25,663 nt of DNA, from positions 1 to 25,663 of IMG/VR virus record IMGVR_UViG_3300027533_000085. One strand, 5' to 3'. The stretch comes from a virus. Taxonomy: Duplodnaviria; Caudoviricetes. Positions 8,682-25,663 of the stretch are shown here, in pieces. The translations under genes were made by a program, and so were the position numbers. The notes beneath the pieces are model-generated. The model saw nothing but the letters and a program-made list of their open reading frames with translations, was not told the origin of the DNA and made no database searches. Positions within the stretch are counted from its first letter, which is position 1, and every line of letters begins with the position of its first letter.

Positions 8682-9389
8682 CTATGAGAGCACAACAAAC
8701 GGGCTCGCGATCGCCTTTTTCGCAGGCCCCTTTGCGCGCAGGCCGACCACGCATCCAACCGGATCTAGAAACCTTGCGTCATGCTCGTCTCCGTCAATAA
8801 CCGGATAGCCATTCCACATCGCAGGCAATGGCGAGCCTTTCTTGACCATGAAGACGACCGAAACATTGACGCCATGCTTCAAACAATCCATAGCGTCTTG
8901 AAAATTCTCGCCAGAGTACGAAAACGTGATGTGATAATTGGCTCGCCTGCGCAACCATGGGCGTTCAATTTTCGTATAGTCATAAAATTGCAAGTCTGGA
9001 TTCTCTTTAGCTAATTGCATTGCGACATCAGGCCGATCGGAAGTTCCGTTGAATCGCACGGCAGGCCTGCGCTTGTTTCGCTTGGCTCGCCTGCGCAAGG
9101 ATTTAATATCCCGTCTCGCCTGCGTCATGAATCCGTCTCTATCCTCAAAGAACCATTTGGTCTTAGCGATTCGCGCTACCTGCGTGCTATTGAAAGCACC
9201 ACGGCCTGCTTTGTTAAGACAGAATTTTGTGCAACCAACAGTGCGCCTAACGCACATCTCATATCCCGATGAATCCGCAGGCGCAAGGTAGCAAATGCCT
9301 GTTTCGATACCCAATGGCTCGCCTTTGATCGTCTTTGCGTCGCCAGCGAAGCGCAGAACGGTCCGTCTCTTTAATGGAGGTTTTCCCAT
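8682..9389 (-). CDS. Phage gp88-like protein (radical-SAM-like Cys cluster)
   Basis: LAPA...C-x6-C-x3-C (CVRRTVGCTKFC) followed by GRG, RFNGTSD, FYDYTK, YHITFS, DGDEHDARFLD and VGLRAKG, a motif set typical of the GP88 family; AGGGGAA RBS. Confidence 0.8.
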   Translation of the reverse strand: MGKPPLKRRTVLRFAGDAKTIKGEPLGIETGICYLAPADSSGYEMCVRRTVGCTKFCLNKAGRGAFNSTQVARIAKTKWFFEDRDGFMTQARRDIKSLRRRAKRNKRRPAVRFNGTSDRPDVAMQLAKENPDLQFYDYTKIERPWLRRRANYHITFSYSGENFQDAMDCLKHGVNVSVVFMVKKGSPLPAMWNGYPVIDGDEHDARFLDPVGCVVGLRAKGPAKKAIASPFVVLS

Positions 9390-13076: not shown

Positions 13077-13183
13077 ATCGCAGACCTGATGATATGCCAT
13101 CTTGCGAAATCCAGCAAGCCTTTTTGCCGCTTTCCGTAAAATTGCCGACATGGTATCGTAACGCCAGAAGGGGAATGAAGTCT

Positions 13184-13912
13184 ATGAAGAATCGCTTGTT
13201 GCACTTTGGGACGCTCGGGGGATCGTTAGTCCTGGTCATCCTGGCCGGCGCCACAATAGGCTGGCGGGCCGCGGAGTGGATCTCCCTTCCAATCCCTGTT
13301 GTGCAAGCCCAGGAGTCGTTGCAGTATCTCCCCGACGGTCCATCCCGCTATGCCTACGACGACCGGTTCTTTTACGATGGGTCGTCGCAGCTGGAATATG
13401 AATGCATCGCCCCGTCTTCCGGAAACTACCTGACCGTATTTGGCCGGCCGGGAGCCACATCCCAACCAACCTTGCCTGGAGGGGGCGCCGCTCCAACCCT
13501 CACCTCCATTACCGTCACGTCCAATGTCGCGATCGCTATTGTCTCTGGCGGTCATGGGTTTGGGGATGGATCGGTTGGGCATGGTTTAGGAACATTAATT
13601 GCCGTGCGGGGGGCAACTGTCTCGCCGGCGCTCAACTCCGGGGCCAGCTCCTGCCCGGCGTCCACCGGATGCTACAGCATAAGCTCCATCATCTCCGCCG
13701 ACGCTTTCTCCTTTGCGACCGTAGGCGTTGCGAATGGTCCTTACACAGAGTCTAGCCTCTATATCTCCACCACCAGCGCCCGCGAAACGCTGGCGATTTG
13801 GAGCATTACGAAACACTGGACCGTCGCGGGGCTGTTTCGACGGAGAGCCCCGGCACAGCAGAATGTCGCGATGAACAAGGTCTGCGCGAACCGGGCGAGT
13901 TATTTCCAATAG
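13184..13912 (+). CDS. Exported virion-associated/tail-type protein with an FCCH-like beta domain
   Basis: ATG at 13184 after AGGGGA (ORF track start 13094). Leader MKNRLL...LVLVILAGATIG...VVQA|Q; central SITVTSNVAIAIVSGGHG...IAVRGAT..LN...YSI domain; 4 Cys. Confidence 0.7.
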   Translation: MKNRLLHFGTLGGSLVLVILAGATIGWRAAEWISLPIPVVQAQESLQYLPDGPSRYAYDDRFFYDGSSQLEYECIAPSSGNYLTVFGRPGATSQPTLPGGGAAPTLTSITVTSNVAIAIVSGGHGFGDGSVGHGLGTLIAVRGATVSPALNSGASSCPASTGCYSISSIISADAFSFATVGVANGPYTESSLYISTTSARETLAIWSITKHWTVAGLFRRRAPAQQNVAMNKVCANRASYFQ

Positions 13913-13963
13913 GGCTGGGCTAAAGCCCACCACCATCCCCATGATCCCCATGAAAAAGGACTT

Positions 13964-14986
13964 ATGAAAATCCTCAAGATCCTCCTAATCCCCCTAGCCA
14001 TGGGCATGGCTTTTGCCCAACAAAAAACAGTCGTCGAACCCGACTGCTCCTCTGACTTTGTCTTAGTGGCAGCAGGCTCCTCCCCCACCTTCGACAACAA
14101 GCGCATGGGCGCCTGCATGTATTGGGTGGTGCAATACGAAAACACACCATCCACTGGTGCATTTACTGCCCTGACGATGACCTTCCAATCGGCGCCGGCA
14201 ACGGGATCGCAAGGTCAGACGGCCGGCACCTGGATCACCTTCGCCGGGACCACTCGAGATGGCGCGAATCCAATGACCAGCACGACGTCTACTTATTCAA
14301 GCTTCGTCGGCTACAATCCATTTGTTCGCGTGACTCTAAGTGGAATCACCGGCACCGGCGGGGCGGTTATAGGAAAGATTAGGGGATGGCGCCGCGAATC
14401 TGCAGGCGCCTCGGCTGGTGGCGTAGCAGGCGTCTCTTCCATCAACGGCACGGCTTTGCAAATTGCAGCATCCGCATCAACCGGCGCGGTTGTCTTGAGT
14501 ATCCCCACAAACCCTACCCTGCCCGGGACGACGACCGGAACGTTCTCGGGCAACCTGACCGGCAACGTCACGGGCAACGTCACGGGCGCCGTGACTGGCA
14601 ATGCTTCAACGGCAACCGCGCTAGCCGCCAATCCAGCTGATTGCTCCGCCGGCGATGTCGCAATCACCATTGCCGCTTCTGGAGCATTGACCTGCACCCC
14701 GCAATATTTTTTTCAAGGGGCCGACACGGGCGGGGATGACACTTACGTTCTTGCCCCTACAAACTTCCCCGCAGCCTACGTCACCGGACTGATGGTCACG
14801 ATCCTGGTGACGACAGGAAACACCGGTGGGGCCACCCTGGATTGCGGCCCTGGTGCAAAAGCCATCAAGCTCCCCGACGGCACCACCGATCCCACGACCG
14901 GCGACATCCCCGCTTTGAGCCTTCAACGGTTTCGTTATGATTCCACGGCCAACGCCGCTGCCGGCGCCTGGATAATGTTTCTCTAA
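13964..14986 (+). CDS. Tail fibre-like protein with signal peptide
   Basis: MKILKILLIPLAMGMAFA|QQ; GNLT/GNVT repeats and GNASTATAL typical of fibre shafts; C-terminal DTGG..Y...NTG..TL..G.GAKAIK...GD module. Confidence 0.8.
   Translation: MKILKILLIPLAMGMAFAQQKTVVEPDCSSDFVLVAAGSSPTFDNKRMGACMYWVVQYENTPSTGAFTALTMTFQSAPATGSQGQTAGTWITFAGTTRDGANPMTSTTSTYSSFVGYNPFVRVTLSGITGTGGAVIGKIRGWRRESAGASAGGVAGVSSINGTALQIAASASTGAVVLSIPTNPTLPGTTTGTFSGNLTGNVTGNVTGAVTGNASTATALAANPADCSAGDVAITIAASGALTCTPQYFFQGADTGGDDTYVLAPTNFPAAYVTGLMVTILVTTGNTGGATLDCGPGAKAIKLPDGTTDPTTGDIPALSLQRFRYDSTANAAAGAWIMFL
14717..14986 (+). repeat. 89-aa fibre module, copy 1
   Basis: Gap-free alignment to 16600-16869, 56/89 aa identical. 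Confidence 0.9.
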
Positions 14987-14994
14987 GGAATGTA

Positions 14995-16869
14995 ATGACG
15001 ATAATCCAACGTCTTCTTTTGCTTCCGCCCTTGCTCCTGCTCTCCGCGATTCCAATCCTGGCCCAAAATATCTACGTCTACAACCCCTTCACGCGCAAGC
15101 TGGACGCCGTCAACCCGGGCGGCGGCACCCCCATCACCGGCGGCGCCTGCCCCGCTGGTCAATATTCCACCGGCATTCAAGCCCTCGTGGGCGTTCCAAC
15201 ATGCTCTCAAGTGGCATTCACCCAGCTTAGCGGCTCAGCCACTAAAGCCCAGCAATTCGTCGCGACCGTCTATAACGACCAATCCAATTCCTGGGTCACC
15301 GGGACGCAATCCTTCGCCGATGCGATCGCGATCGTTTTAAAGACCGGCCCAGCCTATGCCCCGACCGTCTCTGGCCATGTCGGCTATGATTCGACGGCCA
15401 ACGATTACGTCGGCGGGGTCAATGGAACGTCCTTTAGATTTGCCCGTCGCGCCGCCGGCACTCCTACTGTCGGCCATTGCGTCCAATGGGGCGCTGGCGG
15501 AACATTGGACACCGCGGGGGCGATTTGTGGCTCTGGCGGCGGCGGGGGCGGGATCACGACCCTCAATGGGCTGACTCCGGTGACGCAATTGTTTGCAAAA
15601 GTGGACGACACCAACGTCACTTTGAATATTGGCTCGGCAACCGCCACGCACACCTTCACCTTGGGCTGGACCGGCCGGCTCTCCGCCGCCCGATCGCATG
15701 CCGATGCAGTTTATAATTCGCAGGTCAATGCTTACGTTGCCGGGATGAAGCAATCCTTTGCTTCAAATGGCACCAGCGCAGCCCTTCGCCTTGTCCCATT
15801 CGCCGGCGCCCCTTCCTCCCTTCAGGAAGGCGACATGTATTACGACGACGTTTCCCACTCGATGAAGTGCGTCGAGGATGCCGTCCCGACGGCCAAGGAT
15901 TGCGTCTTTTCTGGAGTGCATGACCCAGGCGGGAATGGCGTTGTCATCCGCACCTCGCCTACCACCACGACTTTCAATGTCGGGTCGGCCAACAGGATCA
16001 TGCGCTGGGTGACAACCACGACAGTCGGCGATTCGAACCTCGGCCAAAATGCCTCGACCGGCGCCCTCGAAAATCTAAAAGGCACCAGCGACCCCGCCAC
16101 CGTTGTCGCATCCGGCGGCACTCCGGTCTTCAATCTCTCCACCTCGGATTCCCAAGACCACACCCTGACCTCCAACATCACCTTCACCTTCTCCAATCCG
16201 CCCGCGGCCCCGGCCGGCGCCAAGTTCATCCGGATGATCTGGCGCCAGAACGGCACCGGCGGCTGGACGATCACTTGTCCTGGAACGGTCTTCAACTGCA
16301 TCCAACCGGATCCGACGCCAAATGCCGTCACCATTCAAATCCTGCAATTTGACGGGACCAATTATGCCGTTATTGCTTCAACGTGCGTTGCTACTTGTGC
16401 AAGTGGCTACACCGATTGGTATGGGAAGACGACCGGGCATGTCTCGTGGGGGGTCAGGGACGTCACCGGAACGCCGGCGGATGTGGATGTTCCTTCAGCG
16501 GATCCTACTGCTGCTGGTTATGTGCTTAAAGTAACCCAGGCCGGCAGCGGCGCCACGCCTACCCAATTGGGATGGGGGCCGGGGCCGCAGTTCTGCGCCG
16601 GCACCGACACCGGCGGGGATGACACTTATGTTATTTCTTGCCCCAATTTCCCAGCCGCCTACGCCCTGGATCTAACGATCAGGCTCACCGTTGCCACAGT
16701 AAACACTGGTGCGACAACCCTTGATGCCGGGCTGGGGGCGAAGGCTATCAAATTGGGGGATGGCACGACTGATCCAACTACTGGAGATCTGCCGGCTGGA
16801 TCCACCAGACTTTTGCGTTACGACCCCGCGGCCAATTCCGCGGCCGGTGCTTGGCTTTTGAGCTTTTGA
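14995..16869 (+). CDS. Multi-domain tail fibre-like protein with signal peptide
   Basis: MTIIQRLLLLPPLLLLSAIPILA|QN; YNPFTRKLD motif; TLTSNITFTFSNPP...RQNGTGGWTIT fibre domain; same C-terminal module as the previous gene; 12 Cys. Confidence 0.8.
   Translation: MTIIQRLLLLPPLLLLSAIPILAQNIYVYNPFTRKLDAVNPGGGTPITGGACPAGQYSTGIQALVGVPTCSQVAFTQLSGSATKAQQFVATVYNDQSNSWVTGTQSFADAIAIVLKTGPAYAPTVSGHVGYDSTANDYVGGVNGTSFRFARRAAGTPTVGHCVQWGAGGTLDTAGAICGSGGGGGGITTLNGLTPVTQLFAKVDDTNVTLNIGSATATHTFTLGWTGRLSAARSHADAVYNSQVNAYVAGMKQSFASNGTSAALRLVPFAGAPSSLQEGDMYYDDVSHSMKCVEDAVPTAKDCVFSGVHDPGGNGVVIRTSPTTTTFNVGSANRIMRWVTTTTVGDSNLGQNASTGALENLKGTSDPATVVASGGTPVFNLSTSDSQDHTLTSNITFTFSNPPAAPAGAKFIRMIWRQNGTGGWTITCPGTVFNCIQPDPTPNAVTIQILQFDGTNYAVIASTCVATCASGYTDWYGKTTGHVSWGVRDVTGTPADVDVPSADPTAAGYVLKVTQAGSGATPTQLGWGPGPQFCAGTDTGGDDTYVISCPNFPAAYALDLTIRLTVATVNTGATTLDAGLGAKAIKLGDGTTDPTTGDLPAGSTRLLRYDPAANSAAGAWLLSF
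16600..16869 (+). repeat. 89-aa fibre module, copy 2
   Basis: Gap-free alignment to 14717-14986; a more diverged third copy lies at about 17020-17290. Confidence 0.9.
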
Positions 16870-16893
16870 GCTTTTGACATTCTAGAAACGGGA

Positions 16894-17832
16894 ATGAAAA
16901 TGGGAATGAAAATGAATCTACGACTTATTCCTTGCCTTCTGATCCTCTGGGCAATGACCTCGCCGGCACTGGCCCAAAAGGCTCGCGTCCAGCGCACCGT
17001 CTGGTCTGACGCCACCCAAACGGCCGGCACCGGGGACGCCATCACGCTTGCGCCGTCGCCAGCCCTTGCCGCCCTAACTGATCTCGACACGGTCCCGCCA
17101 ACCCTCACCTGCTTTGTTGCAGAAGCCGTCAACACCACCACGGTGACGGTGGCGATTAGTGGCCTGACCGCCAAGCCGCTTTACAAAATGAACGGGGCGA
17201 TCACGACTGCTCTCGCCGCCAACGATCTGCGCGTCGGCCAAACGGTCTGCTTCGTCCGTTACGTCACCGGCGATGCATTCCAAATGACCACCCAGCTCGG
17301 CAACGCGACGGCCGGTGCTTCGACGCCTCCTCCGATTTACTTTAGGGCTGCTAAGTGCGTCAACGGGTCGGGAGGCCCGGGCATGAACTTGCCGCTCACA
17401 CTGGCCCCGGCGCCCGATTGCATCCCAGGCACCAATATCTTGAGTGGTGAACTCACCTTCCCTGATCTGGATGGCGAGTATAGCGTGCAGGATAGCTTCA
17501 AGGTTCCGACAGGATCCAGCGGCCCCACGGCCGTTAACATCAAATGGAGATCCGCCGGCAACAGCGGCAGCGTCGTGTGGCAGATCGCCGGCATTTGTAT
17601 AGCAGACGACGAAACGATGGATCCGGCGTTTGCGACGGCGCAAGCCACCACAGATGCCATTAAGGCTACTCCCAATGAGGTAAACGATGCCCAGATTCCT
17701 TCACTGACCGTTACGTCATGTGCCGCAGGTGAGATCTACTTCTTCCGATTCTTCAGGGATAGAAACCATGCCTCGGATTCGATCACCAGCACCACCACCG
17801 TGAAGCTGTTGTCGCTAGAGTTTGTCTTCTAG
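16894..17832 (+). CDS. Tail fibre/adaptor-like protein with signal peptide
   Basis: MNLRLIPCLLILWAMTSPALA|QK (start between 16894 and 16912); diverged N-terminal copy of the fibre module; C-terminal beta-sandwich (SVVWQIAGICIADD...FFRFFRD) resembling phage fibre tips. Confidence 0.75.
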   Translation: MKMGMKMNLRLIPCLLILWAMTSPALAQKARVQRTVWSDATQTAGTGDAITLAPSPALAALTDLDTVPPTLTCFVAEAVNTTTVTVAISGLTAKPLYKMNGAITTALAANDLRVGQTVCFVRYVTGDAFQMTTQLGNATAGASTPPPIYFRAAKCVNGSGGPGMNLPLTLAPAPDCIPGTNILSGELTFPDLDGEYSVQDSFKVPTGSSGPTAVNIKWRSAGNSGSVVWQIAGICIADDETMDPAFATAQATTDAIKATPNEVNDAQIPSLTVTSCAAGEIYFFRFFRDRNHASDSITSTTTVKLLSLEFVF

Positions 17833-17843
17833 GAAGGGGGCGC

Positions 17844-18599
17844 ATGTCAATGGGCCAATTAATGTTGAAACAACTTATCGCTGCGGTGCTGTTGATCTGC
17901 AACATGAGCACCCCCGCCCACGGTTCCATTCAGTTCAACGCCACCGGCGAGCGGTTGTCGGATAGCACTCCAACCAACCTAGACTTAACAGCCTTTACAC
18001 TGTGCGCCTGGGTTTATGTGGACACGTCACCGGCGGTGGCCGGGTACATTTTTAACGTTCAAGTGGGAGCTGGTGGGCACTCGCTGCTCAATATCACATC
18101 CACCAATCAAGTGGTTGGAACCAGAACCACCAGCAGCACCGCACGCTCTTCCACCTCCACTGGAACATTGACTGCCGCCACTTGGTATTTTGTCTGCTCC
18201 ACCTATGACGGGGCAGGATCGGCCCCCAAAGTATTCATCTCCAGCGGCTCTAGCGTCAACACGGTCATGACGGAAGTCTCCTACGCCAGCCAAACAGCCG
18301 GCACCGGGACTGATGTCACAACCCCCACCAACACGCTCATCGGCAATACTTCCGCCTTCAATCGAACCTTCCTTGGGCGGATCGCCGAAGTCTGGGTTTA
18401 CACGGTGGAGCTGACGACTGCGCAAATGAACAGCTTGGCTCGGGGCTACCCAATTGCCGGGGCCGTTTGCCACGTTCCGCTTACAAAGAAAAACACCCCC
18501 TCCGCGGATACTAGCGGCTCTGGCAACTCATATGCGTGGTCTACCGGCCCCACTTACGGGGAGCATGCGCCGGTTGCGCCAAGCTTTGGCTGGTGGTAG
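17844..18599 (+). CDS. LamG/concanavalin A-like lectin-domain protein with signal peptide
   Basis: MLKQLIAAVLLICNMSTPAHG|S; LamG_3-type motifs FTLCAWVY, TWYFVCSTYDG, LIGN...FLGRIAEVWVYTVELT, DTSGSGN. Confidence 0.85.
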   Translation: MSMGQLMLKQLIAAVLLICNMSTPAHGSIQFNATGERLSDSTPTNLDLTAFTLCAWVYVDTSPAVAGYIFNVQVGAGGHSLLNITSTNQVVGTRTTSSTARSSTSTGTLTAATWYFVCSTYDGAGSAPKVFISSGSSVNTVMTEVSYASQTAGTGTDVTTPTNTLIGNTSAFNRTFLGRIAEVWVYTVELTTAQMNSLARGYPIAGAVCHVPLTKKNTPSADTSGSGNSYAWSTGPTYGEHAPVAPSFGWW

Positions 18600-18625
18600 A
18601 TCTCGACAATAGCAAATTGGCAAAC

Positions 18626-21600
18626 ATGAAAATCCTTCCAGTCCTGGTTCTAATGGCCGTTCCGCTTCCGCTCTCCGCAGTAGATATCTACCTCCGCACT
18701 CATGACAACAAAAACTGCCGCGTCATCGGCGCCACCTTTGCCACTCCCATCGTCGTCACCTGCGCCGCAGCCCACAACATGGCCGCTGGCGACCGTGTCT
18801 GGTTCAGCAACATCGCAGGCAACTTCGCCACCAACGGCCTGCGTTACGTAGAAATCCCTTCCGCCACGACCTTGCGCCTTTATTCCGACGCTGCCATGAC
18901 GGTTCCCGTCATAGGAAGCGGCACCTGGATCAACGGCAACAACGGCGCAAACGCAGGCGGTTATCAAATCGCCGGCGTAGTCGCGCCCTACACTTTGCAA
19001 CCCAGCCCGCGCATCAGCTGGAATCCTGCCGGGGAGATGATTGAATTCGGAGCCTCCGTCGAAAATGGCCTGTTGGTCAACATCTCCGACAGCAGCACAA
19101 CGGCCACTGCAACCTACAGCCGCGCCCATGGGCTCGCCGTCGGCAACCGAATTTGCATCTTCGGCGCCACCGACCCCGACCTGAATTGCTCCAGCACCGC
19201 CGGCACCTCCGTCTATTTCACCATCACCGCAGTCCCATCCCCAACCACCATTCAATGGGTCACCGCATCGGTAACCGACGCCGTCTACAACAACACCAAC
19301 CTGACCATCTCCTCCTGGGCGCAAGGCGGCAACCCGGCCTGGATAGCCGTCAACAGCTTCCGGTCCTTCCTGACCGGCGGCTCCCCTCCTGCCTACACTC
19401 TTGGCAGGCGGGATTACCAAAAGGAGACTGCGTCCAGTCTGGCCACCATCTGCTACCTCAACCGTTCCGACACCGAAGCCTGCACCATCGCTGAGCACGC
19501 TATCAACAACCCGCAAACCGGCTGGCATAACGGCGGATGCGATGAAACCATCGCCAACTGCGGAGACGACGCGGGCGATTACGCCAGCATTGGTGGGGAA
19601 CACCTTGCCTACATTTATGACTTGATGAAAAACACCAGCTATCTCGACGCTGGTGAGAAGACCGCCTTTCGCAACGCCATGCTCAACGACCTGGGCGACT
19701 CTTGCACCAAGCTCGTCCCGGCCATTGGGGCCGGTTCTATTTCAGTGGTCGGAAACGAAGCGGTCAATGGTCTCCTGACCGGCACGGGCACCAACTTCCT
19801 CACTTCGGTAACGGTGGGATCGATCCTGGTTGCCCGGTACAATCCCGCCGATCCTATTTCTGCGGCCGAGACGATTCATGTCAACGCGGTGATCGATAAT
19901 GAGCACCTGACGGTCAACACCTCCACCTCTGTGCCAAACACGGCTAATCCCATGGGACTTTATTCCATCATCGATCCGCGCACTTCGACCTCCTGCGGCC
20001 TCTGGTGGTTTTTGAAGCATCACAACGGCACTCCACTCGCTCATCCAATCTACTATCCCCCGGTCGGCGGCTACACCCTTAGCGAGGCAGTTGATCCCAT
20101 CAACAACATGACCCAGTCGAAGCTGCATATCGCGATCCTGTTTGGCCTAGCCATGGCCGATGAGGATCCCCGGGCAGCGATTCTCCTCTCGGACGCCAGC
20201 GTCTGGTGGATGGACTACATGCAGCCCACTCAGCGCGGCCAATACACGGGCATGACCCAAGGCGGCAATAATTATTACTTTGCCCGTGTGGCTTACATGG
20301 CCGTGGATATTCCAACGTTTTGGCGGAACGGTTTCGTCGGTGGCCCGGACTGGACTGGCGCCGGTTATATCAAGCCCTTCCAGGACGCATTTAGATTTTT
20401 ATGGCATCCAAACGCCGCAGTGGGCACGAGGAATTGGTGCGTCTGGGCATTCGGCGCCGATGCCGACGGAACTGCATGCTGGAACGGCATGGGCGGGCAC
20501 ATGATCAGCTTCCCCGCTAGTTCTAGAATTTCTCCAGCGTCGGCAGAGACATCAAAGTTCATGTATTGGTATAACAACGTTGCCGGTTTCAACGCCAGCA
20601 CCATCAGCGCCGGCAACAGTTACCAAGCCAACAACATCTTCAAGCGTCAGCCTCCGAATCCCAACGTGGCCACCACCAATTACCTCAGCGACCCCACCCA
20701 ACGGCTATTTCGTGTGGCGGCATCCGACTTAACTTGGTGTACGGAAGTGGGCAGCACTATCCCATGCCCGCCAACCGGGTCGTCTGGAATGGCTTATATG
20801 TTCAGCCGCTCGGGCTGGACCAGCACAACCGACTCCGCGGTTAGTTATTCATCTGCGAGTTTCTATAGCGATCACGACACCCGACGAGCGGGAGATTACT
20901 GCATTGTGAAGGGGAATGGACTAATCTGCGGGGATAGCTATGCGGTCGCGCAATCCCTGGGCAATATGGGCAATAATGCGTCATTTGGCAGGATGAATAT
21001 GTATTTGTTTGGGGGGCTTACCACCAACCAGGGGCAGACGGGCGTCATCAACGGCAATGTCCAGGTGCAGCATTACCATGCGCCAATTTTGAGATGGGCC
21101 GGCGGGGCAAATAATGATGGCAGGAGCGATTCGGCATTTGCTTATGTCCTCTCCAATCTCGCCACCACATGGCAGAGCGGCCTGACCCGTCAGCACCGTG
21201 CGTTGCTGCATTACAAACGTTCCGGCAAACAAGAGCACGTTATCGTCTGGGATGACGTGCTGCGCACCGCCGCCGGGACGATTGAATATTTCGCCCACTT
21301 TGTCCAGGACGGCGAGAGCGGCGAAGGGACAACAAGTTGCCCCAGTGGCGACACCACCTGCGCCTCCGTCAACACCTCCAAGCAGGTTAATACTGCCACG
21401 GCCGGGTCGGCGCAATCGGTCGTTACCAAATTCTTTGCCCCGACCGGCTCGAATATGTTCCTCCAGGTGAACGCCGCGGATGGTTCATATTCCGGCGGTC
21501 TCAACCATACCTACCGCGTCACGAGGTGCGGCGGAACTTCATCCTGCGGATCCGTCACAGCCCTGGAGACCTTCACTGCCCATCAAGTCTCGTCGGGCGC

Positions 21601-22501
21601 GGTGACTACGTCTAGCTTGACGGAACTTAATCCTTCCGCTGATTGGTCTGGCGCTCAATACACCGACCTGACCTACCTGCATGCGCGGGGCGGCAGCACC
21701 TTCACCTCCGTTCCATCATTTACAACATCCGCCACCACAGACATAATTGCCGCCGGCCTCACCCCAGCCACCTATGAGGTGCGCCTTGGGGGCGTAGCGG
21801 TCAGCGGCTGCACCGCCATCGTTGTGATCACCGGGGACAACACGATCTACTGCCCAGACGTCGGGGCAGGGGCCATAACCATCGTCCAGAACGGCGCCGG
21901 CCCCGATCCCATCATCATCACCACCACAACATTGCCCGACGGCACCCAAGCCGTTCCCTATTCGCAAGCATTAACGCTCACCGGCGGGACTCCCGCTTAT
22001 AATTGCTCCATCATCAGCGGATCGCTGCCTGTTGGCCTCTCGATTTCCGTCGCAACGATCTCAGGCACACCCTCCAGCTTTGGCCTCTCGTCCTTCACGG
22101 TCTCCTGCACGGATAGTTTAGGCGCCACGCCCGACACTGCAGCCCTGACCATCAACATCATCTCCTCGGGAAGCCCCATCAACATCACTACGACCACCTT
22201 GCTGGATGGAACTCAAGGGGCAGCGTATTCGCAAACGCTCACCATCACCGGCGGGACTCCTCCTTACAATTGCTCGATTATCAGTGGTGCATTGCCCACC
22301 GGCCTGTCGATCTCGGTGGCGACGATCAGCGGAACGCCCAGCAGCGCCGGCTTGTCGTCATTTACGGTCTCCTGCACTGATTCGGTTGCCGGCACGCCCG
22401 ACACTGCAGCACTGACGATCCTGGTCAACCTGCCGGCTGCGTCTGGAGCCGGTGGACTGCGGCGTGGAGGGAAACAAGTCCAGGGCGGGAAGGTCTTCTA
22501 A
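18626..22501 (+). CDS. Large exported protein: two FCCH-like domains, heparinase II/III-like (putative polysaccharide lyase) core, two He_PIG/Ig-like repeats
   Basis: ATG at 18626 (ORF track start 18536): MKILPVLVLMAVPLPLSA|V; ATPIVVTCAAAHNMAAGDRV and AHGLAVGNRI; helical region with QGGNNY; MFSRSGW...DHDTRRAGDYCI; two TTTL.DGTQ...YSQ.LT.TGGTP.Y repeats; 26 Cys. Confidence 0.75.
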   Translation: MKILPVLVLMAVPLPLSAVDIYLRTHDNKNCRVIGATFATPIVVTCAAAHNMAAGDRVWFSNIAGNFATNGLRYVEIPSATTLRLYSDAAMTVPVIGSGTWINGNNGANAGGYQIAGVVAPYTLQPSPRISWNPAGEMIEFGASVENGLLVNISDSSTTATATYSRAHGLAVGNRICIFGATDPDLNCSSTAGTSVYFTITAVPSPTTIQWVTASVTDAVYNNTNLTISSWAQGGNPAWIAVNSFRSFLTGGSPPAYTLGRRDYQKETASSLATICYLNRSDTEACTIAEHAINNPQTGWHNGGCDETIANCGDDAGDYASIGGEHLAYIYDLMKNTSYLDAGEKTAFRNAMLNDLGDSCTKLVPAIGAGSISVVGNEAVNGLLTGTGTNFLTSVTVGSILVARYNPADPISAAETIHVNAVIDNEHLTVNTSTSVPNTANPMGLYSIIDPRTSTSCGLWWFLKHHNGTPLAHPIYYPPVGGYTLSEAVDPINNMTQSKLHIAILFGLAMADEDPRAAILLSDASVWWMDYMQPTQRGQYTGMTQGGNNYYFARVAYMAVDIPTFWRNGFVGGPDWTGAGYIKPFQDAFRFLWHPNAAVGTRNWCVWAFGADADGTACWNGMGGHMISFPASSRISPASAETSKFMYWYNNVAGFNASTISAGNSYQANNIFKRQPPNPNVATTNYLSDPTQRLFRVAASDLTWCTEVGSTIPCPPTGSSGMAYMFSRSGWTSTTDSAVSYSSASFYSDHDTRRAGDYCIVKGNGLICGDSYAVAQSLGNMGNNASFGRMNMYLFGGLTTNQGQTGVINGNVQVQHYHAPILRWAGGANNDGRSDSAFAYVLSNLATTWQSGLTRQHRALLHYKRSGKQEHVIVWDDVLRTAAGTIEYFAHFVQDGESGEGTTSCPSGDTTCASVNTSKQVNTATAGSAQSVVTKFFAPTGSNMFLQVNAADGSYSGGLNHTYRVTRCGGTSSCGSVTALETFTAHQVSSGAVTTSSLTELNPSADWSGAQYTDLTYLHARGGSTFTSVPSFTTSATTDIIAAGLTPATYEVRLGGVAVSGCTAIVVITGDNTIYCPDVGAGAITIVQNGAGPDPIIITTTTLPDGTQAVPYSQALTLTGGTPAYNCSIISGSLPVGLSISVATISGTPSSFGLSSFTVSCTDSLGATPDTAALTINIISSGSPINITTTTLLDGTQGAAYSQTLTITGGTPPYNCSIISGALPTGLSISVATISGTPSSAGLSSFTVSCTDSVAGTPDTAALTILVNLPAASGAGGLRRGGKQVQGGKVF
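21908..22441 (+). repeat. Two tandem 267-bp He_PIG/Ig-like domain repeats
   Basis: PIIITTTTLPDGTQ... and PINITTTTLLDGTQ..., period 89 aa, high protein identity with many synonymous differences. Confidence 0.9.
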
Positions 22502-22504
22502 AGG

Positions 22505-25051
22505 ATGGCCAGAAGGCGAACGGCACGGCAGACTCCAGCGACTGGTCTAGCCGTCCCGCAGGAGCAACTCTTTGAAGCCGCGGCGCAGGCGCACCAGCTT
22601 CGCCAATCGACTTTGGAAGCATTGGGAGGTGGGGGCTCCGCCGGCCCCAATGATGGATCTACTCCTGCTTATGTTCAAGCTCCAGAAATTGGAGCCCCCA
22701 AATGGGAAGCCCTCCCCTGCCGCGCCGTTTATCTCGCCATCAAGAACCACGGCCGCTATTCGTTGCAACACGTTGCGGCGCAGCAAATCGCCAACGACGC
22801 ATTGACCGCTTATATCTATGGCCAATCCTGGGCGGATCCTCTTTACCGTCCCAGCCCGCAGATGCGCGTTGCATATAGAAAGGAATTCGAAATTGGCATG
22901 GGCGGGGCAAAGGGCGGGGCGAAGACGTTCCTCCTGCCGATGTGGATGACCTGGGGCAATCCATGGTTGCCGGAATATGAGGACGGCCGGTTGATCCTCC
23001 ATCGCCGGTCCTATCTCTACCATCCCAATTTTATTGGCCTGATCCTGCGCCGCAACCAAGTCGATATGGTGGAGATCATTCAAAAGTCCAAGGACATCTT
23101 TGGGCTCTTTGGAGGTTATTATTCCACCGCAGACTCCACCTACCGTTTTCCTAATGGCGGCATGGTCGGGTTCGGGCATATTGCGGATAAGAATTCTTAC
23201 AAAAAATACTTTGGCCGCAACATCACCAAACTCGCCATCGATGAATTGGTGCAGGTTGAGGAATTGAAAACCTATGAGCAGATCAAATCCTGCGTCCGTT
23301 CAGCCTATCCAGACCTTCGCGCCCAAATTCTCTGCACCTTCAACCCCAAGGGCGGGCCGGGCGTTGCCTGGGTCTTTGATTACTACATAGAGCCTAAACA
23401 GAGGCATCCTACGGAAAAGGATGTGTTGATCCCCATTCTAGGGAGCGATGGGTTGCCTATAAAAGCATTCGACGGGGCCGGCCGGGCGACTTATCCAGAG
23501 CCATCCATCAAGGCCAAGGTCGATATGAAGATGGTCTATGCACGGCTTGGCGTGGAGGCGCCGGCCGGGACCAGCGATTCACTAGATAGATGCTTTATTC
23601 CAGCGTTTGTCACCGACAATCCATATCTTCTAGATGATCCCACCTACGTCAAATCCCTTGCCTCTCTAGACGAGGACGATAGAGATGCGTATTTATTTGG
23701 CAAATGGGAGATGGGCGGCGGGGCTTACTTTGCGAATTTTCGTCCCATGCGTTTAGAACATGAACCAGAGAATGCTTGTCATGTTGTGAAGGGACTAGGG
23801 CAATTCCATGTCCCTGGTGGGAGGCTTGATTCCCTAGGCCGGGAGATTGACCTAACCGACAAGAAGATCTTGTCTCGACCTATCTCCTTCTGGTGGGATC
23901 GCGACATCGGCGGGGACTGGGGATTCGGCCATGAGGCAGCTTTCTATTGGGGGGCGCAGAATCCATCCACCCATCAAATCGACGTTTATCGCGAGAGGGT
24001 CTTTCATGAGACCATGCCGGAATCGGTCGGCTTTGAAGTCGGGAGAGAATCTGCGCAGGAGTTGAGAGAGCATCCTGCCCATCGCATGAATCTTTGGCTA
24101 GGTGGAGACGTTGAGGAGAATAGATCAGGTGGTGGCCGGCAGATCATCGAGCTGATCGCCGCGGGGATCCGCCAAGCGATCGGGCCTAACATGGTCCACA
24201 TGCCGGATTATGTAGCGGCGCAAATTGCGCGAGCCCAGCGCGGCCGGGAGATGGAACGTGATTTTGCCTCAGCTGCGCAGATGCCCAATGGGCAGGAGGC
24301 TTCACCAATTGATTGGCTGGATCCAGAATCGCTTCGCCAAGTGAAGTTGCAACGGGCTAGTGGAATCATCATCCGTCGTGCGCTAAGCGACCGGGTTATT
24401 GGGTGGCAATTGTGCCGATCCATGATGCGATGGGCTCCGATTGTTCCATTTGATTCGCAGCAGTTCGATGCCAACGTTGCCCTCTCTACGCTCTTTAGTG
24501 GGATGGGATCTGGCGGGGGATCCTACGAATTCAACCAGTATATGAACGAGATGGCCAAGCAGCGTCTGGAGGTTCTTCCACGACTGCAGATCTGGGATAA
24601 CTGCGTGCGGTTGATTCAAGCCATTCCTCTAGCTAAGAAGGATGAGCGGCATCCGGACGTCGTTGACAAGACGCATTTCCGCGGGATGGACCTTCTAGAC
24701 GCTTGGCGATACTTATTGATGGGGATGAATGAGAGAAAGGTCGGGGAGAAGGAGCCGTTGGAGGTGGCGATCGAGCGGGAATTTGAACTCAACCTGCATA
24801 AATCTGAGCAAAGAACCGGCAAGGGAATGGACATCAACCAGATGATCCAGATGCGAGCCTTCATCGAGAGCGACATGCGCCGGCAGCGGGGGAAGGACAA
24901 AGGGATGCCGGTGGAGAATTTGATTGCCGCCAGGGGGAATGGCGCTGGAGCTACGGCAGTCAGCCGGCAGCTGGCGGCGCGAGCCCGCGTGCAGCAGATG
25001 TTGAAGGGGCAGTTGGGGCCGAATCTACAATCCGACTGGCGGCGGGGTTAG
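22505..25051 (+). CDS. terL: Terminase large subunit
   Basis: Walker A GGAKGGAKT; LILRR; Walker B AIDEL; TFNP.GGPG..WV; FIPAFVTDNPYL; nuclease motifs GGDWGF and DLLDAWRY. Confidence 0.92.
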   Translation: MARRRTARQTPATGLAVPQEQLFEAAAQAHQLRQSTLEALGGGGSAGPNDGSTPAYVQAPEIGAPKWEALPCRAVYLAIKNHGRYSLQHVAAQQIANDALTAYIYGQSWADPLYRPSPQMRVAYRKEFEIGMGGAKGGAKTFLLPMWMTWGNPWLPEYEDGRLILHRRSYLYHPNFIGLILRRNQVDMVEIIQKSKDIFGLFGGYYSTADSTYRFPNGGMVGFGHIADKNSYKKYFGRNITKLAIDELVQVEELKTYEQIKSCVRSAYPDLRAQILCTFNPKGGPGVAWVFDYYIEPKQRHPTEKDVLIPILGSDGLPIKAFDGAGRATYPEPSIKAKVDMKMVYARLGVEAPAGTSDSLDRCFIPAFVTDNPYLLDDPTYVKSLASLDEDDRDAYLFGKWEMGGGAYFANFRPMRLEHEPENACHVVKGLGQFHVPGGRLDSLGREIDLTDKKILSRPISFWWDRDIGGDWGFGHEAAFYWGAQNPSTHQIDVYRERVFHETMPESVGFEVGRESAQELREHPAHRMNLWLGGDVEENRSGGGRQIIELIAAGIRQAIGPNMVHMPDYVAAQIARAQRGREMERDFASAAQMPNGQEASPIDWLDPESLRQVKLQRASGIIIRRALSDRVIGWQLCRSMMRWAPIVPFDSQQFDANVALSTLFSGMGSGGGSYEFNQYMNEMAKQRLEVLPRLQIWDNCVRLIQAIPLAKKDERHPDVVDKTHFRGMDLLDAWRYLLMGMNERKVGEKEPLEVAIEREFELNLHKSEQRTGKGMDINQMIQMRAFIESDMRRQRGKDKGMPVENLIAARGNGAGATAVSRQLAARARVQQMLKGQLGPNLQSDWRRG

Positions 25052-25529: not shown

Positions 25530-25663
25530 ATGATCCCCATCCTTCCGCCCGCCAACCTCCGCGGTTCCGGACCTGCGTCCTCCAACGGAAGGATCGATCC
25601 CTCGCAGCTCTGGGAGAATCAAACTTTTAGATCAGTCCTCTCCAAATTCCTGCACCATGTCGT
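25530..25663 (+). CDS. Partial CDS, possibly portal protein (by position only)
   Basis: ATG at 25530, open to the window end (MIPILPPANLRGSG...SKFLHHV); no diagnostic motif in the visible part. Confidence 0.45.
   Translation, partial: MIPILPPANLRGSGPASSNGRIDPSQLWENQTFRSVLSKFLHHV

Follow-up and report, generated by a model that had tools for sequence, protein, structure and literature searches.

We analysed a 25,663-nucleotide stretch of viral DNA (IMG/VR record IMGVR_UViG_3300027533_000085; hereafter the window), a 25.7-kb tailed-phage fragment in which minus-strand genes for a UvrD helicase, a GP88 protein and a D5-type primase are followed on the plus strand by a block of six genes (g1–g6) and by terL, which encodes the terminase large subunit. 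All six block genes begin with Sec-type leader peptides and, judged from their sequences, their products are very probably exported; we also consider it rather likely that at least g2–g4 go on to dock on the virion. The reading we favour, with moderate confidence, is periplasmic export, with docking on particles at lysis as the later step. By the usual teaching, tailed phages assemble wholly in the cytoplasm; the parts of the block are known folds, and any novelty lies in the route and stands or falls with the proposed docking step. A preliminary description of the sequence had put forward that this phage exports its receptor-binding apparatus, of which export and homology to fibres and lectins have held up, and evidence points both ways on docking versus host display or release.

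13184–13912, plus strand: g1, 242 amino acids; long leader or signal anchor; four cysteines; weakest member of the block
13964–14986, plus strand: g2, 340 amino acids; leader AFA↓Q; fibre-like; paralogue of g3 (C-terminal half)
14995–16869, plus strand: g3, 624 amino acids; leader ILA↓Q; mosaic fibre; 12 cysteines
15079–15105, plus strand: YNPFTRKLD motif of g3, residues 29–37, five residues past the predicted cut
16912–17832 (alternative starts 16894 and 16900), plus strand: g4, 306 amino acids; leader ALA↓Q; fibre repeat module and jelly roll
17862–18599 (alternative start 17844), plus strand: g5, 245 amino acids; leader AHG↓S; LamG/concanavalin-A-like lectin domain
18626–22501, plus strand: g6, 1291 amino acids; leader LSA↓V; 26 cysteines; lyase lead and two C-terminal immunoglobulin (Ig)-like repeats
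22505–25051, plus strand: terL, leaderless terminase large subunit; PHROG 979 (E 3.9e-27) and PHROG 2
25530–25663, plus strand: start of a portal-like gene, leaderless, 905 amino acids in full, continued in metagenome locus L038

Leader peptides and their conservation

Leaders were called with a home-made heuristic for n-, h- and c-regions, not with SignalP, and were corrected by eye where stated. The heuristic flagged g2–g6, and also g1 when translation was started at 13175 or 13184, compared with none of the 36 other open reading frames of at least 60 amino acids in the window and L038, terL included, and with 58 of 2960 random internal positions. Its errors ran in both directions, two leaders of the complete relative G005 that are plain by eye being missed and proteins of loci L026 and L028 being wrongly flagged. 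Each of the six leaders has a basic n-region, a hydrophobic h-region and small residues at positions -3 and -1 (best 10-residue hydropathy 2.5–3.1), and the cleavage sites given in the preliminary description (VQA↓Q, AFA↓Q, ILA↓Q, ALA↓Q, AHG↓S and LSA↓V) read exactly so. Glutamine occupies +1 in four of the six, and pyroglutamate is possible at this position of four block proteins. Lipobox and Tat motifs were absent from the six leaders, and g2–g6 contained neither a transmembrane segment after the leader nor a PEP-CTERM-type C-terminal anchor; thus, nothing was seen that would hold these proteins on a cell. The g1 leader is longer, as had been pointed out together with the suggestion of a membrane anchor, and it is ambiguous: the heuristic cut falls after residue 23, compared with the VQA↓Q site at 42, and a signal anchor is possible because of this ambiguity and because no homologue of g1 was found.

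Homologues largely keep the leaders, a point raised for checking in the preliminary description. By eye, a leader stood at the start of 10 of 11 g4 relatives, and six of these sharing the N-terminal domain (N-domain) retained Q[KV][AG]RxQ from the predicted +1 glutamine, directly after divergent leaders. Both homologues of g6 (P0007 and L001) keep a leader, with a conserved mature end while the leaders diverge. For g3, which had 800 relatives at E <= 0.001, the best 149 of the 800 were analysed; 100 of the 149 were flagged, against 58 of 2960 internal controls, and A/G/S-Q cleavage-type sites were found in 78 of 93 leader-bearing relatives versus 9 of 50 unflagged ones. On this sequence evidence the leaders appear to behave as cleaved. 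The 27 viral loci encoding the C-terminal domain (C-domain), or tip, of g4 comprised 19 with classical leaders, two with a long extension before the leader, three leaderless and three cut at the 5' end. In the two extended fibres (L006:1492-3681 and L017:3622-7377), about 85–100 residues with a common 'AYRLLTR' stretch stand ahead of a signal-peptide-like segment, a possible cytoplasmic tether.

The predicted cut of g3 places its YNPFTRKLD motif five residues from the new N-terminus, which is the register of leaderless motif proteins. A scan with [FY]NPFTGK[LF]D, a degenerate pattern, in part preset, that is stricter than the g3 motif itself, found at least 128 loci. Among the matches listed (102 distinct viral cases), 96 had the motif at most eight residues from the first methionine, three had it behind a leader and three were classed as other, two of these appearing leader-borne by eye; the 96 are not independent events because many matches come from related phages. 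Of 18 motif proteins tested, seven matched PHROG tail families; in g3, YNPFTRKLD is a putative docking peptide. Separately, small genes lie upstream of motif fibres (L048–L175), and 7 of the 13 tested match PHROG 26903, a possible adaptor partner.

Modules and cysteines of the block proteins

The mature proteins had been described as looking like fibre, lectin or depolymerase proteins, which was upheld for fibres in g2–g4 and for a lectin in g5; for g6, depolymerase is only a lead, and g1 is without a family, having no match in Pfam, PHROG or NCBIfam. Membership of g1 in a small family encoded upstream of some FNPF fibres was rejected, the likeness being not significant against shuffled sequences, and a search for a small repeat common to g1, g6 and an adaptor-like gene was negative. 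For g2–g4, neither Pfam nor the PHROG tail families gave a direct match, and PDB sequence searches returned nothing significant. All-against-all BLASTP related g2 to g3 (35% identity over 321 amino acids, E 7e-38); g2 also matches leader-bearing fibre-like proteins of L004, L008, L013 and L022, and the best Atlas (language-model) match of g3 was the phage tail-fibre C-terminal domain PF26209 (score 0.90). In g5, a LamG domain (PF13385) was recognised at E 7.1e-13 (49.4 bits versus a gathering cut-off of 27.6).

The N-domain of g4 is a module repeated in leaderless tail-fibre proteins, some with Gp53-like_C or S74 domains, and its tip is modelled as a CBM6/35/36-like jelly roll, nearest CBM36 and CBM6 (7ay3_A, Z 10.5, root-mean-square deviation 2.9, 121 residues aligned; 2cdo_A, Z 10.2, deviation 3.1, 131 aligned). 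The likeness to CBM6, CBM35 and CBM36 jelly rolls is one of fold only (about 9% identity), and sugar binding is putative. In the monomer model the predicted local distance difference test score (pLDDT) was mostly 70–85 in the C-domain and 50.5 overall; Foldseek viral matches, to collagen/C1q-type proteins, were weak because the N-domain is unresolved in this model. A three-copy prediction scored 0.91 versus 0.00 for the best of three controls, with contacts agreeing at 82% or more between runs and pLDDT of at least 82. Among proteins of solved structure, 20 of 30 pairs and 1 of 23 single chains attained the mark set for this score; g4 is predicted to form a homotrimer, a pass that may echo likeness to solved trimers.

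For g6, an Atlas score of 0.87 to Hepar_II_III_C clusters makes a heparinase II/III-like polysaccharide lyase a putative identity, to be taken as a lead only; neither a Pfam lyase match nor a PDB sequence match was found, and the AlphaFold model (mean pLDDT 28.7) is too low to use. At its C-terminus, g6 has repeats that match the Ig extensions found on major tail proteins of phages. The end of g6 (22445–22501) and of both homologues is similarly glycine-rich (GG-x-x-x-x-GG-x-V type), with or without Ig repeats, and could be a second docking signal.

Ordinary cytoplasmic fibres and tailspikes (PF21882 Gp53-like_C, S74-chaperoned, PF26209 and the fibre of L027) share with this block the g4 repeat module, the g4 tip, the C-terminal module and N-terminal motif of g3 and the predicted trimer. 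They differ in being leaderless with few cysteines, whereas g2–g6 are leader-bearing and showed no recognisable virion-anchor domain; specifically, no element that would attach g2 or g4–g6 to a virion was seen, and the motif of g3 corresponds to the N-terminal end of leaderless fibres. The leaders on all six genes lower the case for canonical cytoplasmic fibres, not the case that the proteins work like fibres. According to one preprint legend, the P22 tailspike lacks a signal peptide, presumably because export is not required.

Cysteine made up 1.9% of residues in g1–g6, compared with 0.8% for the head module (p 1e-4). Even cysteine counts occurred in 85 of 93 leader-bearing g3 relatives versus 33 of 50 unflagged ones, a count that omits 6 of the 149 relatives (g2 itself and five doubtful flags). 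Four cysteines of the g4 tip were kept in 22 of 27 viral loci and in 5 of 5 database matches, C149 and C170 were lost together in L013, and the leaderless tip homologues of L026, L027 and L028 had none of the four; the likely disulfides are C149–C170 and C229–C270. Such pairing would place the proteins on the oxidising side of a membrane. Export and periplasmic folding are well supported because the leaders are conserved, the mature ends stay in register and the cysteines co-vary.

Possible virion docking or a fate at the host cell

On the reading that we favour, g1–g6 would be expressed late, given their position directly before terL on the late strand, and would in all likelihood be exported by Sec to the host periplasm and cleaved there by signal peptidase I. 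Disulfides would form in the periplasm, where g4 is predicted to trimerise, and the proteins, for lack of an anchor, would be stored there. Docking onto finished particles, the weakest step, would follow when lysis breaches the inner membrane; contact would be made by exposed N-terminal peptides, the g3 motif among them, or by small leaderless adaptors whose genes lie elsewhere. The six proteins may differ in fate, with g6 the likeliest free enzyme.

Gene neighbourhoods bear on the docking step. The coordinates confirm the earlier statement that terL starts (22505) 3 nucleotides past the g6 stop (22501), and terL is unflagged. Over 13,159 nucleotides L038 matches the window exactly; it extends about 9 kb further, adding leaderless genes of 905, 686 and 464 amino acids that are portal-like, scaffold-like and capsid-like by position and by homology to same-slot genes of L041, L045, L006 and G005, with no direct PHROG match. 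On the question put in the preliminary description, whether capsid and tail-core genes lack leaders, the answer was yes for the head genes and terL, the tail module being outside the view. At least 17 of the 27 g4-tip loci have head, connector or tail neighbours, as judged from a PHROG scan of 127 open reading frames (126 of the 218 unflagged ones of at least 140 amino acids, plus the L026 match), which cannot show that core genes are leaderless. At L027 the g4 tip forms the end of a 2424-amino-acid leaderless PHROG tail fibre, and at L012 a leader-bearing protein with the g4 tip comes immediately after a leaderless 234-amino-acid tail-anchor gene (PHROG 1640, E 1.6e-25), an arrangement suggestive of one fibre divided between a leaderless anchor and an exported body. 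Six further loci (L007, L009, L010, L023, L005 and L035) carry a leaderless gene of 150–160 amino acids directly before the leader-bearing g4-tip protein and behind a long tail-like gene; these genes had no PHROG match and are candidate split-fibre anchors.

G005, a complete relative of 66.3 kb with terminal repeats, has terL (E 6e-48) and the portal-like and capsid-like genes in common with this phage, and its g4 homologue aligns over residues 21–296. It encodes nine leader-bearing late proteins (seven flagged, two by eye) and one that is lipoprotein-like, including both long PHROG fibre matches; two leader-bearing fibre-like genes lie directly behind terL and a 187-amino-acid gene, and no leaderless long fibre was seen among the recognisable late genes. 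Two leaderless G005 proteins, of 174 and 187 amino acids, are candidate partners for the N-terminal peptide of g3. Leader-bearing genes also occur among the head genes of L041, L045 and L006, those of L006 alone being a g4-tip homologue. Tunturi 1 and 2 (PP887698, PP885685; PMC11924767), cultured plaque-forming podoviruses of Tunturiibacter, encode a comparable block annotated as fibre, spike and lyase proteins (gp12–gp17) that is leader-bearing and cysteine-rich, with leaderless core virion genes. Their leaders are on gp12, 13, 14, 16 and 17, even cysteine counts (10–34) occur in gp12, 13, 14 and 17, and other long fibre or spike genes are apparently absent; in contrast to the window, their block follows the capsid genes and does not precede terL. 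Neither 'signal peptide' nor 'mass spectrom' occurs in the main text of PMC11924767.

An appreciably less probable explanation is that the proteins are exported and never enter the virion, acting as a set of adhesins, lectins and glycanases at the surface or in the surroundings of an infected or lysogenic cell, or as looseners of capsule or biofilm released at lysis. In its favour, the complete phage G001, whose g6 homologue is 60% identical, carries a PEP-CTERM gene right after it (L001:13429-14130; TIGR02595 above cut-off) alongside a long collagen fibre that is apparently leaderless, its start wrapping round the genome end. A Bryobacterales genome (L037) has both g4 domains in a single chromosomal homologue, around which no phage genes were seen. 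In two Acidobacteriaceae loci (L032:549-5346 and L033:326-11817), tail-like and leader-bearing genes abut the same host genes, which we take to be 2-oxoacid dehydrogenase-like, a possible domesticated tail element. Precedents for cell-borne proteins of this kind are the MAT fibres of Bdellovibrio bacteriovorus (PMC10769870), which in the parts of that paper available are mosaic, trimeric, phage-fibre-like adhesins bearing signal peptides. They are set apart by description, being chromosomal and cell-borne, whereas g1–g6 are phage-encoded on the late strand. An approximately 130-amino-acid domain after the signal peptide is common to all 21 MATs, and 13 of the 21 have an S74 chaperone; all-against-all BLASTP found no common N-domain in g1–g6, which also had no S74 match. 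Porphyromonas gingivalis phages likewise encode Q-rule proteins with Sec leaders and glutamine at +1, five genes of unknown function that the accessible text reads as possible modifiers of the host outer membrane and does not call fibres (PMC10367356). Against a fate outside the virion stand the absence of a visible anchor in g2–g6, the apparent lack of other long fibre or spike genes in G005 and Tunturi 1 and 2, the resemblance of L012 to a leaderless anchor with an exported fibre body, and the virion-module neighbours of the g4-tip loci.

Several further observations weigh against docking at lysis. The block precedes terL, outside the usual tail slot, and no leaderless anchor for it was identified. 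The tail module of this phage lies beyond the window and L038, and ordinary cytoplasmic fibres are therefore possible in it. Unflagged g3 relatives also lean to even cysteine counts (p 0.03), g2 and g5 have odd counts (five and three cysteines), and the leader-bearing protein of L029 has none of the four g4-tip cysteines. No direct homology links the Tunturi 1 and 2 proteins to g1–g6, with weak links to five g3 relatives, and the fibres of Tunturi 3, 4 and 5 are leaderless except for one doubtful flag, so these hosts can be infected without the export route. The G001 and L037 genes described above count on the same side, and neither this phage nor its relatives have a virion proteome or image.

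Considerably more doubtful is the idea that the leaders are uncleaved or transient membrane tethers, with fibres waiting on the inner membrane, or kept inactive beyond the cytoplasm, until they are collected during assembly, and with the forms of g1, L006 and L017 as the anchors. The ambiguous g1 leader and the cytoplasmic-type residues ahead of the hydrophobic stretch in L006 and L017 would fit it, but the short classical leaders with their excess of A/G/S-Q sites, the conservation of the mature N-terminus from the cut onward and the paired cysteines, which point to the oxidising side, all speak against it. Least probable of all, and very unlikely, is an artefact of misassigned starts or a passenger island of secreted proteins from the host, outside the phage programme: ATG, GTG or TTG codons do occur within the leaders and no Shine-Dalgarno match lies upstream of 18626, but the g6 start is accepted because two homologues have leaders in the same register, in g3, g4 and g6 the 25 residues after the cleavage site contain no start codon, and leaders are conserved among relatives. 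The block is not a recent island because its GC content and codon use follow the head genes (relative synonymous codon usage, r 0.90 versus 0.75 for early genes), and the earlier concern about an island unlinked to terL fails on this codon match together with the similar leader-bearing blocks beside terL, in the same late region, in the terL-homologous relatives G005, L006, L041 and L045.

Phage setting and implications of a possible split assembly

We infer a host within the Acidobacteriota because half of the GTDB loci with a g4 tip (4 of 8) belong to this phylum; the others are from Deltaproteobacteria, Bdellovibrionales, Acetobacteraceae and a small Bifidobacterium contig. Cultured phages gave no matches to the g4 tip, g3, g5, the capsid-like protein or L061, and terL was less than 28% identical to cultured phages throughout the best 20 of 112 matches. 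Single-sequence scans (g6, terL) and alignment scans A1, A3 and A8 of viral contigs found no matches. No terS-like gene was seen beside terL, which has long N- and C-terminal extensions. Among the early genes, the GP88-family protein is encoded at 8682–9389 on the minus strand (PF17338, E 8.7e-39), and a sign change of GC skew between 9000 and 11200, in a poorly coding stretch ahead of the D5-type primase gene, marks a possible origin. Promoter and terminator counts did not exceed chance level, and no RNA holder came up.

No account of exported virion fibres was found in the literature, a search in which most subscription papers and supplements were outside scope and a published note could be missed. 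In the portions of these sources available, phi24B gp84 decorates the capsid and 'signal peptide' does not occur in the text, the word 'signal' is absent from the HFTV1 structure preprint, signal peptides are mentioned in PMC5723332 and PMC13001222 but not in connection with fibres, and PMC5837995 does not mention Acidobacteria.

Overall, we regard it as an evenly balanced proposition that there is a widespread class of tailed phages in which heads and tail cores are cytoplasmic and the host-recognition kit of disulfide-bonded trimeric fibres, lectins and glycan lyases is periplasmic. With the same even weighting, this kit would be matured by the Sec machinery, signal peptidase and oxidases of the host and would snap on through N-terminal peptides unmasked by cleavage, and particles might become infectious only after the membrane breaks, a consequence that could equally go either way. 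Because Tunturi 1 and 2 are in culture, where they reach 10^8–10^9 PFU (plaque-forming units)/mL according to the available text of PMC11924767, the model is directly testable. If it is true, a periplasmic branch of assembly gives phages disulfide-stabilised receptor binders, and the export and oxidation enzymes of the host become host-range factors. It would also explain the apparent lack of annotated fibres in many soil phages, and signal-peptide genes in viral contigs would not automatically be host 'morons'.

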